A DNA stretch of 64,000 bases. Source: Escherichia coli (GTDB lineage Bacteria; Pseudomonadota; Gammaproteobacteria; Enterobacterales; Enterobacteriaceae). Made by a program: the position numbers and the translations under genes. Where the stretch lies: NCBI RefSeq assembly GCF_003790525.1, contig NZ_CP033635.1; one strand, written 5' to 3'. Below the pieces are notes generated by a model. The model made no database searches and was not told the DNA's origin. It saw only the letters and a program-made list of their open reading frames with translations. Positions 1,083 through 37,259 of the stretch are shown here, piece after piece (position 1 is the first letter of the stretch; each line of letters opens with the position of its first letter).

Positions 1083-2390
1083 ATGAAACGTGTTTCTCAA
1101 ATGACCGCGCTGGCAATGGCTTTAGGGCTGGCTTGCGCTTCTTCGTGGGCCGCTGAACTGGCGAAGCCTCTTACACTTGACCAGCTTCAACAACAAAATG
1201 GCAAAGCGATAGATACTCGCCCCAGCGCGTTTTATAACGGCTGGCCACAAACCTTAAATGGCCCTTCTGGTCATGAACCTGCCGCCTTAAACCTCTCTGC
1301 CAGCTGGCTCGACAAAATGAGCACCGAACAGCTCAACGCGTGGATCAAGCAACATAACCTGAAAGCCGATGCTCCGGTGGCGCTGTACGGTAATGACAAA
1401 GATGTCGACGCCGTCAAAACGCGACTGCAAAAAGCAGGTTTTACGCATATCTCCATTCTGAGTGACGCGCTAAGCGAACCTTCCCGTCTGCAAAAACTGC
1501 CGCATTTTGAGCAGCTGGTTTATCCGCAATGGCTGCACGACCTGCAACAAGGTAAAGAGGTTACGGCGAAACCTGCCGGTGACTGGAAAGTCATTGAAGC
1601 GGCCTGGGGCGCTCCTAAGCTTTACCTTATCAGCCATATTCCCGGCGCTGACTACATCGATACCAACGAAGTGGAAAGCGAACCGCTGTGGAACAAAGTT
1701 TCTGATGAACAACTGAAAGCGATGCTGGCAAAACACGGCATTCGCCATGACACCACGGTCATTCTGTACGGGCGTGACGTATACGCTGCAGCGCGTGTGG
1801 CACAAATTATGCTCTACGCTGGCGTGAAAGATGTCCGCCTGCTGGACGGCGGCTGGCAAACCTGGTCCGACGCGGGACTGCCCGTTGAGCGCGGAACGCC
1901 ACCGAAAGTGAAAACGGAACCGGATTTCGGCGTGAAGATCCCGGCACAACCGCAACTGATGCTTGATATGGAACAGGCGCGTGGACTGCTGCATCGCCAG
2001 GACGCCTCGCTGGTGAGTATTCGTTCGTGGCCGGAGTTTATCGGTACGACCAGTGGTTACAGCTATATTAAACCAAAAGGTGAAATAGCCGGAGCACGTT
2101 GGGGACACGCTGGTAGCGACTCGACGCATATGGAAGATTTCCATAACCCGGATGGCACCATGCGCAGCGCCGATGATATTACGGCTATGTGGAAAGCATG
2201 GAATATCAGACCAGATCAGCAAGTTTCATTCTACTGCGGCACCGGCTGGCGCGCGTCCGAAACCTTTATGTACGCACGAGCAATGGGCTGGAATAACGTC
2301 TCCGTTTACGACGGCGGCTGGTACGAATGGAGCAGCGATCCAAAAAATCCGGTAGCAACCGGTGAACGCGGCCCGGACAGCAGCAAATAA
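1083..2390 (+). CDS. ynjE: periplasmic thiosulfate sulfurtransferase (tandem rhodanese domains)
   Basis: 435 aa from second in-frame ATG; signal peptide MKRVSQMTALAMALGLACASSWA; rhodanese Cys loop CGTGWRAS. Confidence 0.88.
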   Translation: MKRVSQMTALAMALGLACASSWAAELAKPLTLDQLQQQNGKAIDTRPSAFYNGWPQTLNGPSGHEPAALNLSASWLDKMSTEQLNAWIKQHNLKADAPVALYGNDKDVDAVKTRLQKAGFTHISILSDALSEPSRLQKLPHFEQLVYPQWLHDLQQGKEVTAKPAGDWKVIEAAWGAPKLYLISHIPGADYIDTNEVESEPLWNKVSDEQLKAMLAKHGIRHDTTVILYGRDVYAAARVAQIMLYAGVKDVRLLDGGWQTWSDAGLPVERGTPPKVKTEPDFGVKIPAQPQLMLDMEQARGLLHRQDASLVSIRSWPEFIGTTSGYSYIKPKGEIAGARWGHAGSDSTHMEDFHNPDGTMRSADDITAMWKAWNIRPDQQVSFYCGTGWRASETFMYARAMGWNNVSVYDGGWYEWSSDPKNPVATGERGPDSSK

Positions 2391-2398
2391 CATTGCAA

Positions 2399-3019
2399 TT
2401 ACTGACGCTGGAGCGACTTCAGCGTCAGATACCCACTCCACACCCGCGTAAAGGTCGTCATCCAGCACAACGCACCAAATACCCACGCAAACCACGGAAA
2501 ACAGGCCGGAAAGAGGCAACTCAGAACAAACAGCAAAATCGTCTCGCTGCCTTCGGTTAACCCGCCCAGATAATAAAACGATTTATGCGCATAACCAGGA
2601 TTATCAATCTGATGTTTCGCCGCCAGCGCAGCAAAAGCGAGAAAACTGCTGCCCGTGCCGATAAACGCAAACAGCAGCCAGCCGCCTGCCAGCGCATTTT
2701 GCTCCGGTGCAGCAAGAATAAAACCAAACGGCACCAGCGCGTAAAAGAGAAAATCGAGAGAAATATCGAGAAAGCCGCCCGCGTCGGTAAGCCCTCTGCG
2801 CCGCGCCAGCGCACCGTCCAGACCATCAAGCAGCCTGTTCAACAAAATGGCGACTAGCGCCGCCAGATACCAGCCCAGCGCCAGAAAAGGCAGTGCCAGC
2901 ACGCCGATGGCAAATCCCACTAATGTTAAACCATCTGGCGTAATGCCCGGTTTATCAAGAACCCGCACGCACTGATGCAACAACGGTTTAATCCGGGGAT
3001 GAAGATGGCGGTCTAGCAC
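2399..3019 (-). CDS. ynjF: CDP-alcohol phosphatidyltransferase family inner membrane protein
   Basis: Hydrophobic ORF; second in-frame GTG has AAGGAG 5 nt upstream, giving 206 aa; ORF track starts 2 codons earlier. Confidence 0.8.
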   Translation of the reverse strand: MLDRHLHPRIKPLLHQCVRVLDKPGITPDGLTLVGFAIGVLALPFLALGWYLAALVAILLNRLLDGLDGALARRRGLTDAGGFLDISLDFLFYALVPFGFILAAPEQNALAGGWLLFAFIGTGSSFLAFAALAAKHQIDNPGYAHKSFYYLGGLTEGSETILLFVLSCLFPACFPWFAWVFGALCWMTTFTRVWSGYLTLKSLQRQ

Positions 3020-3105
3020 AGGCACTCCTTAAATATAAAGCCTTTCTGATTGAGCAACAGTGCGGATATTATGGCATTTTTCGCTTATCTGCCCGTGTGT
3101 AATTT

Positions 3106-3513
3106 ATGAAAATGATTGAAGTTGTTGCCGCCATCATCGAACGTGATGGCAAAATTTTACTCGCGCAACGCCCCGCCCATAGCGATCAGGCGGGATTATG
3201 GGAGTTTGCCGGTGGTAAAGTCGAGCCGGATGAAAGCCAGCGGCAGGCGCTGGTGCGTGAGTTACGCGAAGAACTGGGCATCGAAGCAGCTGTGGGTGAA
3301 TATGTTGCCAGCCATCAGCGAGAAGTTTCGGGGCGGATTATCCATCTTCATGCCTGGCACGTACCCGACTTCCACGGGACGTTACAGGCACATGAACATC
3401 AGGCGCTGGTCTGGTGCTCACCTGAAGAGGCGCTGCAATATCCGCTGGCCCCTGCTGACATTCCACTATTAGAGGCGTTTATGGCTTTACGCGCCGCCAG
3501 ACCAGCGGATTAG
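3106..3513 (+). CDS. nudG: Nudix hydrolase (CTP/dCTP pyrophosphohydrolase)
   Basis: 135 aa; Nudix box GGKVEPDESQRQALVRELREELGIE. Confidence 0.9.
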   Translation: MKMIEVVAAIIERDGKILLAQRPAHSDQAGLWEFAGGKVEPDESQRQALVRELREELGIEAAVGEYVASHQREVSGRIIHLHAWHVPDFHGTLQAHEHQALVWCSPEEALQYPLAPADIPLLEAFMALRAARPAD

Positions 3514-3751
3514 TGCTAAGGGTTTTGTCATCACGCTGGCATTGCAGCAGTATTCCTTCGGCTTTAATTACCGCCCCTTCAGAATAATTTTGATCCTGAT
3601 AAACGCAGCACTGAGTACAGGGCTGCGCTGACTGCCCGCCTGAACTGAACACTTCTGGCGGTACGTTTACCTCCACGTCCGGATGATAATGCGGGTTAGC
3701 CAGTGCAATTAATGGAAATGCTAATACTACGGCGAACAATGCTCGACTCAC
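3479..3751 (-). CDS. ynjH: DUF1496 secreted protein
   Basis: 90 aa ORF with N-terminal signal peptide; 3' end overlaps nudG 3' end by 35 bp on the opposite strand. Confidence 0.8.
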   Translation of the reverse strand: MSRALFAVVLAFPLIALANPHYHPDVEVNVPPEVFSSGGQSAQPCTQCCVYQDQNYSEGAVIKAEGILLQCQRDDKTLSTNPLVWRRVKP

Positions 3752-33978: not shown

Positions 33979-34482
33979 ATGACTGAAATGGCTAAAGGAA
34001 GCGTGACGCATCAGCGGTTAATCGCTTTATTATCGCAAGAAGGTGCTAACTTCCGCGTCGTTACCCATGAAGCGGTAGGTAAATGTGAAGCGGTGTCAGA
34101 AATTCGTGGCACCGCTTTAGGCCAGGGGGCTAAGGCACTGGTATGTAAAGTCAAAGGCAATGGCGTAAATCAACATGTTCTGGCGATCCTCGCTGCCGAT
34201 CAACAGGCCGATCTGAGCCAACTCGCCAGCCATATAGGCGGATTACGCGCTTCGTTGGCCAGCCCAGCGGAAGTCGATGAACTCACAGGCTGTGTCTTCG
34301 GCGCGATCCCCCCTTTCAGCTTCCATCCAAAACTCAAACTGGTTGCCGACCCCCTACTCTTCGAACGATTTGATGAAATCGCCTTCAATGCAGGCATGCT
34401 GGATAAATCCGTTATTTTGAAAACCGCGGATTATTTGCGTATTGCGCAACCAGAACTGGTCAATTTCCGCCGCACTGCGTAA
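33979..34482 (+). CDS. yeaK: YbaK/ProX-type aminoacyl-tRNA deacylase
   Basis: 167 aa. Confidence 0.85.
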   Translation: MTEMAKGSVTHQRLIALLSQEGANFRVVTHEAVGKCEAVSEIRGTALGQGAKALVCKVKGNGVNQHVLAILAADQQADLSQLASHIGGLRASLASPAEVDELTGCVFGAIPPFSFHPKLKLVADPLLFERFDEIAFNAGMLDKSVILKTADYLRIAQPELVNFRRTA

Positions 34483-34587
34483 CTAGCCTGTCCGTTCAAT
34501 AAGCAGAACGGACAAAACCAGCACAGCAGCAATGGCAAAAAACGATGACGTGATAATCAGTGTCTCGACGAACATTTGATCGTTCAT
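34483..34587 (-). CDS. yoaI: small membrane protein (34 aa)
   Basis: Read by hand on the minus strand: [34 protein letters not shown]; below the ORF-track size cutoff; stop abuts the yeaK stop. Confidence 0.6.
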
Positions 34588-34756
34588 AGTATGCCCCCGG
34601 GAGATAGCTGTTTTCACGTTATTGTTAACGTACACAAATGGCAGTTTGATGACAGTTCGTCTGATTTTTTATGCAAAAAACGTAAAGATTTTCTACTTCC
34701 TGCCTGCAGCAAGCGTAAAGTAAGCAGGCTTATTATTTTTTGGCAAGGAAACCACG

Positions 34757-35203
34757 ATGTTTGATGTCACTTTGCTGATCCTGCTCGGGTTAGCTGCGCT
34801 GGGCTTTATCAGTCATAACACCACTGTCGCCGTTTCAATTCTGGTGTTGATCATTGTCCGCGTCACACCGTTAAGCACCTTTTTCCCGTGGATTGAAAAA
34901 CAGGGGCTAAGTATCGGGATAATCATTCTGACGATTGGCGTTATGGCTCCCATCGCCAGCGGGACGCTACCGCCCTCAACCCTGATTCACTCATTTCTGA
35001 ACTGGAAATCGCTGGTGGCAATTGCAGTCGGCGTTATTGTCTCCTGGCTGGGGGGGCGCGGCGTGACGTTAATGGGCAGCCAGCCGCAACTGGTCGCCGG
35101 GCTGCTGGTGGGCACTGTTTTAGGCGTGGCGCTGTTTCGCGGCGTACCGGTTGGCCCGCTTATTGCCGCGGGTCTGGTTTCGCTGATTGTGGGGAAACAG
35201 TAG
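34757..35203 (+). CDS. yeaL: UPF0756 inner membrane protein
   Basis: 148 aa, four predicted helices. Confidence 0.85.
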
Positions 35204-35981
35204 TTAATCCCGCAATATATCGGCCTGGCGTTTGCCCCAGGCCTTTCTTAAACATAGTAATAAAGGCCGTTGTTGAATCATACCCCAGCGTATGAGCAAC
35301 TTTCTGTACAGTATCGCCTTTCACTAATCCCTGAAGCGCCATAATCAGCTGTAACTGCTGACGCCACTGGCGAAAACTCAACCCCGTCTCTTTCACTATC
35401 AGCCGGGCAAGATTGCGTTCACTCATCGCAAAAAAGCCAGCCCATTGCCCCAATGAGCCCCACTCGACGGGCTCTTTCGCCATCATCTCCACCATCGTGC
35501 GGATTTTAGGATGAGAAGAAACGGGCAGGTGCAGCTGTTGTTGTGGCTGCTGAGGGAGTTCATCAAACAGGACCTGAATTAATCTGCGGGTCATCGGCTC
35601 AGCACGCTGAGTCGTCGTCCTGTTTGCCAGGGTTAAAATTAATTCCCGGCATAAGGGCGATATTTTCAATGTGCAACATGTTGTCGGCATTGTCACTGCG
35701 CTGGGCTCGATAAACAGAAAACAGAGTTCAGCGTTAGCTGTCACTTGATTGCTATGTTTCACCCCGCCCGGTATCCAAACCGCATATTGTGGCGGCACCA
35801 TCCACAAAGCATTTTCCACCGTACAGGTAATTGCACCATGTAGCGCCAGTATCAACTGCCCTTTGCGGTGCTGATGTACAGGACTGGTTAACTCATCCGT
35901 TCCGGCGTGAATACAAAATGCGACCGCGGCCTCATGGTGTCGGTCGGGTTCATAGCCATTGAGATTCAACCTGTGCATCAT
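35160..35981 (-). CDS. yeaM: AraC-family transcriptional regulator
   Basis: 273 aa; cupin-like N-terminus and C-terminal AraC HTH; 3' end overlaps yeaL by 44 bp. Confidence 0.85.
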
Positions 35982-36077
35982 TTTGTCCGAATTTAGCGAT
36001 AATTTGTCATTTTAGCTTGATTCAACATAACAATAAAAACGGTAAGGTACAGCCTCGTTTGTAACAATGAGAAGCAT

Positions 36078-37259
36078 ATGACCTGTTCAACTTCATTAAG
36101 CGGCAAAAACAGGATTGTCCTTATCGCTGGTATTCTGATGATTGCCACAACATTACGCGTCACCTTTACCGGCGCAGCACCGTTACTGGATACGATTCGT
36201 TCCGCTTACTCGCTGACGACAGCGCAAACCGGCTTATTGACCACCCTGCCATTATTGGCCTTTGCGCTAATCTCACCTTTGGCCGCCCCGGTGGCGCGAC
36301 GTTTTGGTATGGAACGTAGCCTGTTTGCCGCGTTACTTTTGATCTGTGCAGGTATCGCAATTCGCTCTCTCCCTTCGCCTTACTTATTATTTGGCGGTAC
36401 AGCGGTCATTGGCGGTGGGATTGCATTAGGTAATGTCTTACTGCCAGGATTAATTAAACGCGATTTCCCTCATTCCGTCGCCAGACTTACCGGCGCATAT
36501 TCCCTGACAATGGGAGCTGCGGCGGCACTGGGATCGGCTATGGTAGTGCCGCTGGCTTTGAACGGTTTTGGCTGGCGAGGCGCGTTGCTCATGCTGATGT
36601 GTTTTCCTCTGCTGGCTCTTTTTTTATGGCTGCCACAGTGGCGAAGTCAACAACATGCAAATTTGAGTACCTCACGCGCCTTACATACTCGGGGTATCTG
36701 GCGTTCGCCGCTTGCCTGGCAGGTAACATTGTTTCTTGGGATCAACTCACTCGTCTATTACGTGATTATTGGCTGGCTTCCGGCGATCCTCATCAGTCAC
36801 GGCTATAGCGAAGCACAGGCGGGTTCACTGCATGGTTTGCTGCAACTAGCCACAGCAGCTCCCGGTTTGCTGATCCCACTTTTCTTACATCATGTGAAAG
36901 ATCAGCGTGGTATTGCAGCGTTCGTTGCCTTGATGTGCGCAGTGGGCGCGGTTGGGCTCTGCTTTATGCCAGCACACGCGATCACCTGGACTCTGCTTTT
37001 CGGTTTTGGTTCCGGCGCAACAATGATACTGGGGTTGACGTTCATTGGTCTGCGGGCAAGTTCTGCGCATCAGGCGGCGGCACTCTCGGGGATGGCACAA
37101 TCCGTCGGGTATTTGCTGGCAGCCTGTGGGCCGCCGCTGATGGGTAAAATACACGATGCTAACGGTGACTGGTCCGTACCACTGATGGGTGTTGCAATAC
37201 TTTCACTACTGATGGCGATTTTCGGACTTTGCGCCGGGAGAGACAAAGAAATTCGCTAA
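36078..37259 (+). CDS. yeaN: MFS transporter (cyanate-permease-like efflux protein)
   Basis: 393 aa, 12 predicted helices. Confidence 0.85.
   Translation: MTCSTSLSGKNRIVLIAGILMIATTLRVTFTGAAPLLDTIRSAYSLTTAQTGLLTTLPLLAFALISPLAAPVARRFGMERSLFAALLLICAGIAIRSLPSPYLLFGGTAVIGGGIALGNVLLPGLIKRDFPHSVARLTGAYSLTMGAAAALGSAMVVPLALNGFGWRGALLMLMCFPLLALFLWLPQWRSQQHANLSTSRALHTRGIWRSPLAWQVTLFLGINSLVYYVIIGWLPAILISHGYSEAQAGSLHGLLQLATAAPGLLIPLFLHHVKDQRGIAAFVALMCAVGAVGLCFMPAHAITWTLLFGFGSGATMILGLTFIGLRASSAHQAAALSGMAQSVGYLLAACGPPLMGKIHDANGDWSVPLMGVAILSLLMAIFGLCAGRDKEIR

Follow-up and report, generated by a model that had tools for sequence, protein, structure and literature searches.

Stop-codon drift as the probable origin of the 44-bp convergent overlap between yeaL and nimR in Escherichia coli

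The convergent Escherichia coli genes yeaL and nimR share their last 44 bp of coding sequence. The account that we consider likely as a whole is that neutral drift of a stop codon produced this overlap, that yeaL has a terminator embedded within nimR, that nimR transcription is ended by Rho and that cross-talk between the two genes is weak. Because overlap length varies between genera and the extra NimR residues are unconstrained, we regard the 44 bp as a by-product and not as a designed coupling element. The overlap is ordinary, long annotated and already known, and with the pair already catalogued as an excludon it has little significance for biology at large. The additions made here are small: a named toggle nucleotide that sets overlap length, the neutral character of the NimR extension and the conservation of synonymous sites in the embedded hairpin.

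The yeaL/nimR junction among convergent overlaps

We analysed a window of 64,000 nucleotides of E. coli DNA. The yeaL coding sequence occupies 34757-35203 on the plus strand, encodes 148 aa and ends with a TAG codon at 35201-35203, and nimR (formerly yeaM) occupies 35160-35981 on the minus strand, encodes 273 aa and ends with a TAA codon at 35160-35162 (reverse complement); the open reading frame list and RefSeq both give these genes. Their tail-to-tail overlap on the two strands, 35160-35203, had been proposed in a sequence-only reading, and open reading frames, raw sequence and RefSeq annotation agree that it measures 44 bp. It takes in the final 14 sense codons of yeaL plus its stop, and each stop codon lies inside the reading frame of the opposite-strand partner. 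The frames are phased so that yeaL codon position 3 faces nimR position 2, 2 faces 3 and 1 faces 1. The K-12 annotation carries the overlap as b1789/b1790.

Pfam and RefSeq also bear out the identities that the same reading gave to the two genes, a membrane protein and an AraC-type regulator. YeaL is an inner-membrane protein of the DUF441/UPF0756 family; the Pfam DUF441 match covers residues 7-145 of 148 (E=2.7e-44), placing the C-terminus inside the conserved domain, and orthologues at 60 loci are 84-98% identical. NimR matched HTH_18 at residues 180-255 (67 bits, cut-off 33.6) as well as HTH_AraC, and AraC_binding at residues 22-147 (23.2 bits, cut-off 21.1). It has the architecture of the AraC/XylS family, with an N-terminal cupin-type ligand domain and a C-terminal double helix-turn-helix (HTH), the latter stopping near residue 255. 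Both partners are genuine protein-coding genes.

The junction is nearly uniform within E. coli. RefSeq annotates the identical pair of coding sequences with the same overlap in strain SMS-3-5 (NC_010498.1), which matches the window at 100%, and in K-12 MG1655, where yeaL lies at 1874352-1874798 and nimR at 1874755-1875576. The 44-bp overlap was confirmed in all three E. coli checked (SMS-3-5, K-12 and STEC17-183); the one difference between K-12 and the window near the junction, at 35155, falls outside it. Of 5426 complete E. coli genomes, 5407 contain a junction 60-mer at >=95% identity, and in a strain with two mismatches at the junction the 44-bp overlap is still annotated. One E. coli strain carries an IS1 insertion in the yeaL/nimR junction.

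Overlaps of this kind form a well-described class (Palleja et al. 2008, PMC2478687; Huvet & Stumpf 2014, PMC4161906). A survey of E. coli found 663 adjacent pairs with an overlap, of which 75 are convergent (PMC4161906), and yeaL/nimR resembles these roughly 75 pairs in consisting of real opposite-strand genes with shared 3' ends. Convergent orientation alone often gives real long overlaps, with 60 bp as the usual warning threshold (PMC2478687). Of the window's 12 convergent junctions, ten have gaps (0, 3, 8, 21, 46, 50, 58, 76, 92 and 119 bp), and the other two are overlaps, of 44 bp for yeaL/nimR and 35 bp for ynjH/nudG. Read antisense in the nimR frame, yeaL presents stops at 9 of its 148 codons, and the chance that such a run-on reaches 44 bp (14 codons) is ~0.94^14 = 0.4. 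The length of the overlap is about what chance gives.

Overlap length, the toggle nucleotide and the NimR tail

From a one-genome-per-species scan we obtained 80 enterobacterial loci with NimR orthologues, located nimR, yeaL and nimT in each, and measured the overlap by extending both frames to their stops. Tail-to-tail geometry was kept among the 80 loci, with the two genes separated by 3-8 bp in some and overlapping by 44, 29, 21, 20, 17, 6, 4 or 0 bp in others. Measured from the nimR start, the yeaL end lies at a constant distance in most genera, Escherichia, Klebsiella, Enterobacter and Lelliottia included. An overlap of 44 bp with a NimR of 273 aa was found in 12 Citrobacter-type loci besides the E. 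coli window, and one of 17 bp, with a NimR of 264 aa in most cases, in 31 loci from Klebsiella, Raoultella, Enterobacter, Lelliottia, Leclercia, Pluralibacter, one Escherichia locus (L002) and C. youngae ATCC 29220. A few loci overlap by 20, 21 or 29 bp; in Buttiauxella, Atlantibacter, Franconibacter, Salmonella arizonae and C. werkmanii the genes overlap by 4-6 bp or 0 bp, or are 3-8 bp apart. The nimR of Kosakonia, Phytobacter, Cedecea and Edwardsiella has no adjoining yeaL, and where the two genes are not neighbours NimR orthologues range from 261 to 272 aa, most of them having 262-266.

A simple rule describes where nimR stops: positions 2-3 of a yeaL codon and position 1 of the next spell T(T/C)A. 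The decisive site is 35187-35189 (minus strand), nimR codon 265, which reads CAA (Gln) in the window and is a stop in the 264-aa orthologues; on the yeaL strand it comprises positions 2-3 of Ile144 and position 1 of Val145. A G at 35189 gives Val145 in YeaL and read-through in NimR, and an A gives Ile145 and a nimR stop. All 31 of the 17-bp loci have TTA or TCA at yeaL codons 144/145 (Phe, Ile or Leu followed by Ile), and the window and all 12 fetched 44-bp loci have TTG or TCG (Ile followed by Val), a perfect association of T(T/C)A versus T(T/C)G with the 17- versus the 44-bp overlap (31 versus 13 loci, window included). The NimR tail of locus L002 accordingly reads TTVSR*. The stop used in the window is spelled by yeaL Leu135 positions 2-3 (tt) and Ile136 position 1 (a), in the context ctt att; in 13 of 13 44-bp loci codon 135 is CTT or CTC and is followed by ATx, giving nimR a TAA or TGA.

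Read together, these patterns suggest how the overlap would have arisen. Across most Enterobacteriaceae nimR has abutted yeaL, its frame running onto the antisense of the codons for the last transmembrane helix and ending wherever adjacent yeaL codons happen to spell T(T/C)A, in most genera codons 144/145, to give the 17-bp overlap and the 264-aa protein. With G at 35189, as in E. coli and most Citrobacter, codon 265 is Gln in place of a stop, and NimR runs on for nine residues, up to the next stop site at yeaL Leu135/Ile136; these drift freely while YeaL stays constrained. The 17-bp form is more widespread, and because of this wider distribution, taken in place of a rooted tree, we infer that it is the older state and that the change at 35189 was from A to G.

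The extension itself, codons 266-273 at 35163-35186 (minus strand), is antisense to the last transmembrane helix of YeaL and together with codon 265 reads QSAKPDPRQ. Across the 13 44-bp loci, mean pairwise identity is 0.64 for NimR residues 265-273, compared with 0.90 over residues 1-258 and 0.925 over the HTH, and the final 14 residues of YeaL are identical (1.00). In the tail the residues P, Q, S, T, R, K and D interchange freely among loci. Diversity at yeaL second positions within the overlap is 0, and at third positions it is 0.296 inside the overlap versus 0.358 outside, so that the depressed synonymous variation that would mark a constrained NimR tail was not seen in this 44-bp group. 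These alignments show an extension that behaves as an unconstrained, neutral 3' passenger, opposite a YeaL under strict purifying selection. Of the two genes, yeaL is the constrained partner and its synonymous changes become amino-acid changes in the NimR tail.

Convergent overlaps have been attributed to the loss or movement of stop codons (Rogozin et al. 2002, as cited in PMC2478687). The yeaL/nimR pair resembles that class in that a stop was lost, the frame reads on until the neighbour supplies another, and one partner's segment evolves freely opposite a constrained one. Nothing essential sets it apart, 44 bp being fairly long yet short of the 60-bp artefact threshold; what distinguishes it is that the exact toggle nucleotide (35189) and an apparently older 17-bp state can be named. 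The junction may serve as a worked example in which one nucleotide sets a conservative Ile/Val choice in one protein and stop or read-through in the other, after which the tail drifts.

A hairpin downstream of yeaL and the 3' end of nimR

A consensus terminator scan identified a candidate yeaL terminator stem-loop, GGCCTGG-N8-CCAGGCC, at 35222-35243 on the plus strand (fold -12.7 kcal/mol). The 7-bp stem has 6 GC pairs and encloses an 8-nt loop, and it is followed at 35244-35252 (plus strand) by the T-tract TTTCTTAAA (5 T in 8), which is templated by nimR codons K246, K245 and F244; the scan gave TTTCTTAAAC as the sequence after the hairpin on the yeaL strand. The stem starts 19 nt past the yeaL stop and the T-tract 41 nt past it (40 intervening bases). 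The hairpin lies within nimR codons 247-254 (G247 L248 G249 Q250 T251 P252 G253 and the first base of R254), and hairpin and T-tract together span codons 244-254.

Comparative data point to selection on this element. Hairpin and T-tract follow the yeaL stop by 40 nt in 19 of 20 Escherichia, Citrobacter and Salmonella loci, and within that clade the position of the hairpin is independent of the overlap between the coding sequences, be it -4, 0, 17, 20, 21 or 44 bp. Four synonymous stem sites (GGC, CTG, CCA, GGC) are frozen in the 20 loci, with diversities of 0-0.1, while at the three loop codons in the same loci every synonymous variant is present (diversity 0.53-0.77). Only 5 of the 67 conserved four-fold-degenerate codons of nimR show so little diversity (<=0.1) in the clade, and 4 of the 5 are the stem codons G247, L248, P252 and G253. 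Fifteen of the 20 loci from which stem conservation was judged are Citrobacter, and the stem is invariant throughout, so that the evidence consists of conservation and not of compensatory covariation. The synonymous positions at the hairpin site vary freely in other genera and where nimR does not lie beside yeaL, and many Klebsiella and Enterobacter loci in which yeaL still adjoins nimR have a weak hairpin or none. Within E. coli, the hairpin-bearing 60-mer is exact in 5232 genomes.

We conclude that the hairpin and T-tract are probably the intrinsic terminator of yeaL, held in place by nimR codon choice. Transcription of yeaL would end at 35222-35243 and the T-tract to 35252, and this signal would be kept through synonymous sites of nimR. 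The T-tract is TTTTTTGAA or TTTTTTAAA in most Citrobacter; given that the E. coli tract, TTTCTTAAA, is interrupted, the candidate terminator may be weak or leaky there. Its GC-rich 7-bp stem, 8-nt loop and U-rich tract liken it to other intrinsic terminators embedded in convergent coding sequences. It differs from them in lying wholly in the HTH-coding part of nimR, where it would be kept by the codon choice GGC CTG ... CCA GGC, with AAR AAR TTY for the U-tract, and also in its interrupted E. coli U-tract and in not being bidirectional. It would then exemplify a terminator held by codon choice inside the DNA-binding domain of a neighbour. A bidirectional terminator was considered and rejected: the sequence after the hairpin on the nimR strand is GATATATTGCGGG, which is no U-tract, and transcription of nimR passes the hairpin before it reaches the nimR stop. 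Against Rfam, the interval 34000-36500 gave only a sub-threshold JUMPstart match (E=0.13, 21.5 bits, gathering 35), which we took as chance.

For nimR, a consensus scan downstream of its stop found no intrinsic terminator, the fold of 35020-35175 (minus strand) was unremarkable (z = -0.2), and a scan of 60 loci for a nimR terminator within yeaL gave nothing consistent. The untranslated run-on of nimR antisense to yeaL, 35000-35159 on the minus strand, is C-rich, G-poor and rut-like: over its first ~160 nt the C/G ratio is 1.35-2.0, which ranks at roughly the 90th-97th percentile within the window. C-rich, G-poor untranslated antisense RNA of this kind fits Rho-dependent termination. We presume this to be the termination zone, and the nimR transcript probably ends there, by Rho action in the run-on within yeaL. 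In some Enterobacter, Citrobacter and Leclercia a hairpin followed by CTGTTTTT lies ~283 nt downstream of the nimR stop; it is weak in E. coli.

Since their coding sequences overlap, the yeaL and nimR mRNAs are necessarily complementary, and with the candidate terminator in place we infer that complementarity extends over at least ~93 nt (35160-35252). The extent of transcript overlap would be set by the terminator of yeaL embedded in nimR and by nimR having none of its own, and not by the overlap of the coding sequences. No entry for a mapped 3' end of yeaL or nimR was found in the supplements of Adams 2021 and TERMITe.

Antisense transcription and regulatory coupling

The yeaL-nimR pair is one of 165 convergent excludons catalogued for MG1655, a call made from RNA-seq coverage where the transcripts overlap in 50% or more of 58 transcriptomes (PMC12288877). 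It resembles other convergent excludons of that study in having overlapping transcripts, with one terminator inside the transcription unit of the other. Because the coding sequences overlap, such a call is automatic and silent on regulation, and a general caution follows: an excludon label on overlapping coding sequences says nothing alone about regulation. NimR is an AraC-family repressor of nimT and of itself. The divergent nimR-nimT intergenic region, 35982-36077, is its sole known binding target by annotation and SELEX, making it a single-target factor that acts there and not at yeaL (PMC5934670).

Published strand-specific counts give a limited view of the transcripts (Huang et al. 2020, Table S1). 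Sense/antisense RPM for yeaL were 4.5/2.9 in wild type, 4.6/1.6 in rnc-14 and 3.5/1.7 in rnc-38, and for yeaM (nimR) 17.6/0.84, 11.4/0.82 and 6.9/0.37, respectively; antisense reads in yeaL thus amount to 34-65% of sense. Converted at the sense density of yeaL, the antisense signal in nimR corresponds to 48-83 nt, compared with 93 nt predicted for a yeaL end at the hairpin, and at the sense density of nimR the antisense signal in yeaL corresponds to 112-206 nt, well past the 44 coding bases; this arithmetic uses 3-34 reads per cell and serves as a consistency check, not a measurement. On these tiny read numbers, neither yeaL nor nimR RNA rose in the rnc-14 or rnc-38 mutants, and p19-captured dsRNA was low, at 1.7-14 RPM for yeaL and 5.9-33 RPM for nimR. 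Reciprocal expression with RNase III-dependent processing is what defines excludons functionally, and of such processing the rnc-mutant counts for this pair give no sign. In the excludon study itself, p19 dsRNA could not validate convergent excludons (PMC12288877). As a separate point about the method, p19 captures few 3' duplexes in general.

The sequence-only reading had predicted antisense coupling between the regulator and its neighbour. Complementarity of the mRNAs is certain and the pair is excludon-listed; the coupling is unsupported by the few data available, namely the single NimR target, the steady RNA levels in rnc mutants and the low p19 dsRNA, and in the literature searched we found no data on whether yeaL and nimR are expressed reciprocally or to each other's exclusion. 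Regulatory coupling between the two genes is unproven. Cross-talk, if any, would probably come from the transcript overlap and not from the 44 coding bases, and would be weak at the low expression of both.

Several other readings of the locus were weighed against neutral drift. A functional convergent excludon, in which collision of RNA polymerases and/or cleavage by RNase III would make expression mutually exclusive and couple a nitroimidazole regulator to YeaL, is in our view rather unlikely. Its membership of the MG1655 excludome speaks for it, as does a yeaL terminator inside nimR, which PMC12288877 ranks as a stronger class of evidence, together with an adjacency kept across many genera and antisense levels in yeaL of up to about two-thirds of sense. 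Yet transcript overlap is inevitable for overlapping coding sequences, so that the listing is uninformative on regulation, and neither rnc allele stabilised the RNAs; low p19 signal, the failure of the convergent class in p19 validation, a lone NimR target unrelated to yeaL and the existence of nimR without a yeaL neighbour in four genera, Kosakonia to Edwardsiella, all weigh on the other side. The more specific idea that selection froze the hairpin to set the extent of yeaL mRNA within nimR, making the pair a true excludon, we consider distinctly unlikely. Were it true, inducing either gene would silence its partner in cis and link YeaL to the NimR/NimT nitroimidazole response. We think it very unlikely, too, that the palindrome is kept for some role other than yeaL termination, such as a structure for nimR mRNA stability or translation, or a protein site on the DNA. 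Being symmetric, it could form a hairpin in both RNAs, it is conserved whatever the overlap length (-4 to 44 bp), and no 3' end is documented there in the supplements of Adams 2021 and TERMITe. However, a T-rich tract follows it in the yeaL direction only, its placement 19 nt past the yeaL stop is classical terminator geometry, ribosomes would unwind it within the translated region of nimR mRNA, and the antisense counts in nimR fit a nearby yeaL end.

That the nine-residue NimR tail is adaptive, gained in E. coli and Citrobacter with the overlap kept for its sake, seems highly improbable. In its favour, E. coli is fixed for the 273-aa form, which is also common in Citrobacter, and the CTT or CTC at yeaL codon 135 preserves the terminal stop in all 13 loci; against this, the extension is the least conserved part of NimR (0.64 identity), the yeaL synonymous sites of the overlap are nearly as variable as those elsewhere, the HTH is over by about residue 255, and 257-, 264- and 265-aa forms occur in C. 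werkmanii, C. youngae ATCC 29220, C. amalonaticus and Escherichia L002. We give almost no credence to an annotation or sequencing artefact in which one C-terminus is wrong and no true overlap exists. Many long 3' overlaps in databases are indeed caused by frameshifts or lost stops (PMC2478687), but SMS-3-5 and K-12 agree in sequence and annotation, the sequence recurs in >5400 complete genomes, the YeaL C-terminus falls within a conserved domain, the stop codons are unambiguous and 44 bp is under the 60-bp flag of PMC2478687. The earlier suggestion that re-annotation with a shorter C-terminus for either protein could refute the overlap describes something that cannot occur, because stop codons fix the 3' ends.

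Other pairs in the window are also listed as excludons, namely nudG-ynjH, yeaK-yoaI, yeaO-yoaF, ynjE-ynjF and pdeD-yoaE (PMC12288877). The first of these resembles yeaL/nimR in form, being an excludon-listed convergent overlap of similar size (35 bp, 3479-3513), although its genes are unrelated to yeaL and nimR.

Convergent junctions in the window and excludon calls

By annotation, the whole window contains 12 convergent junctions, of which two overlap, by 44 and 35 bp, while the rest are gaps of 0, 3, 8, 21, 46, 50, 58, 76, 92 and 119 bp. The comparison of yeaL/nimR with nudG/ynjH drawn in the sequence-only reading was borne out, as RefSeq annotation places nudG at 3106-3513 (+) and ynjH at 3479-3751 (-), giving a shared stretch of 35 bp (3479-3513). 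Every one of the tightest six of the 12 junctions is called as an excludon in the 2025 map of MG1655 (PMC12288877), which suggests that the excludon call mostly follows intergenic distance. yeaK (33979-34482, +) and yoaI (34483-34587, -), a small membrane protein gene, lie tail-to-tail with a gap of 0 bp (33979-34587), and this pair is included in the excludon list of PMC12288877.

The yeaL/nimR junction and nimR-nimT in other genomes

In locus L002, whose record CP089930.1 carries the label E. coli strain E69, YeaL is 98% identical to that of the window and NimR only 89% identical; this NimR ends at residue 264 and its gene overlaps yeaL by 17 bp. L002 probably represents a divergent lineage of Escherichia in which the shorter 17-bp state has been retained. 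In E. coli 23CRST051 (locus L086, NZ_AP045826.1 2520360-2525396), an IS1 element sits in the yeaL/nimR junction (positions 1313-3313), a natural disruption of the overlap; YeaL and NimR are annotated there as 166 and 279 aa.

The nimR-nimT pair is also present, at 72-75% identity to the E. coli pair, in Edwardsiella piscicida (L016) and E. ictaluri (L018), with no yeaL near it in either locus. Edwardsiella belongs to a different family, Hafniaceae, and the presence of the pair there without a nearby yeaL suggests that the nimR-nimT module is able to move independently.

Structures antisense to yeaL

Within yeaL codons ~45-60, several Enterobacter, Citrobacter and Leclercia loci (L008, L011, L028, L039, L048, L050, L062 and L063) carry a hairpin on the nimR strand (-7 to -17 kcal/mol) followed by CTGTTTTT; in L050 the tract is TTGCTTTT. 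Counted from the nimR stop, the hairpin lies about 256-283 nt further downstream; with the tract that follows it, it could be the site at which nimR read-through ends in these loci. The E. coli counterpart (window ~34890-34940, -) is weak.

Also antisense within yeaL, a weak match to Rfam JUMPstart at 34963-34992 (-) scores 21.5 bits (E=0.13), below the gathering score of 35, and is most likely due to chance.
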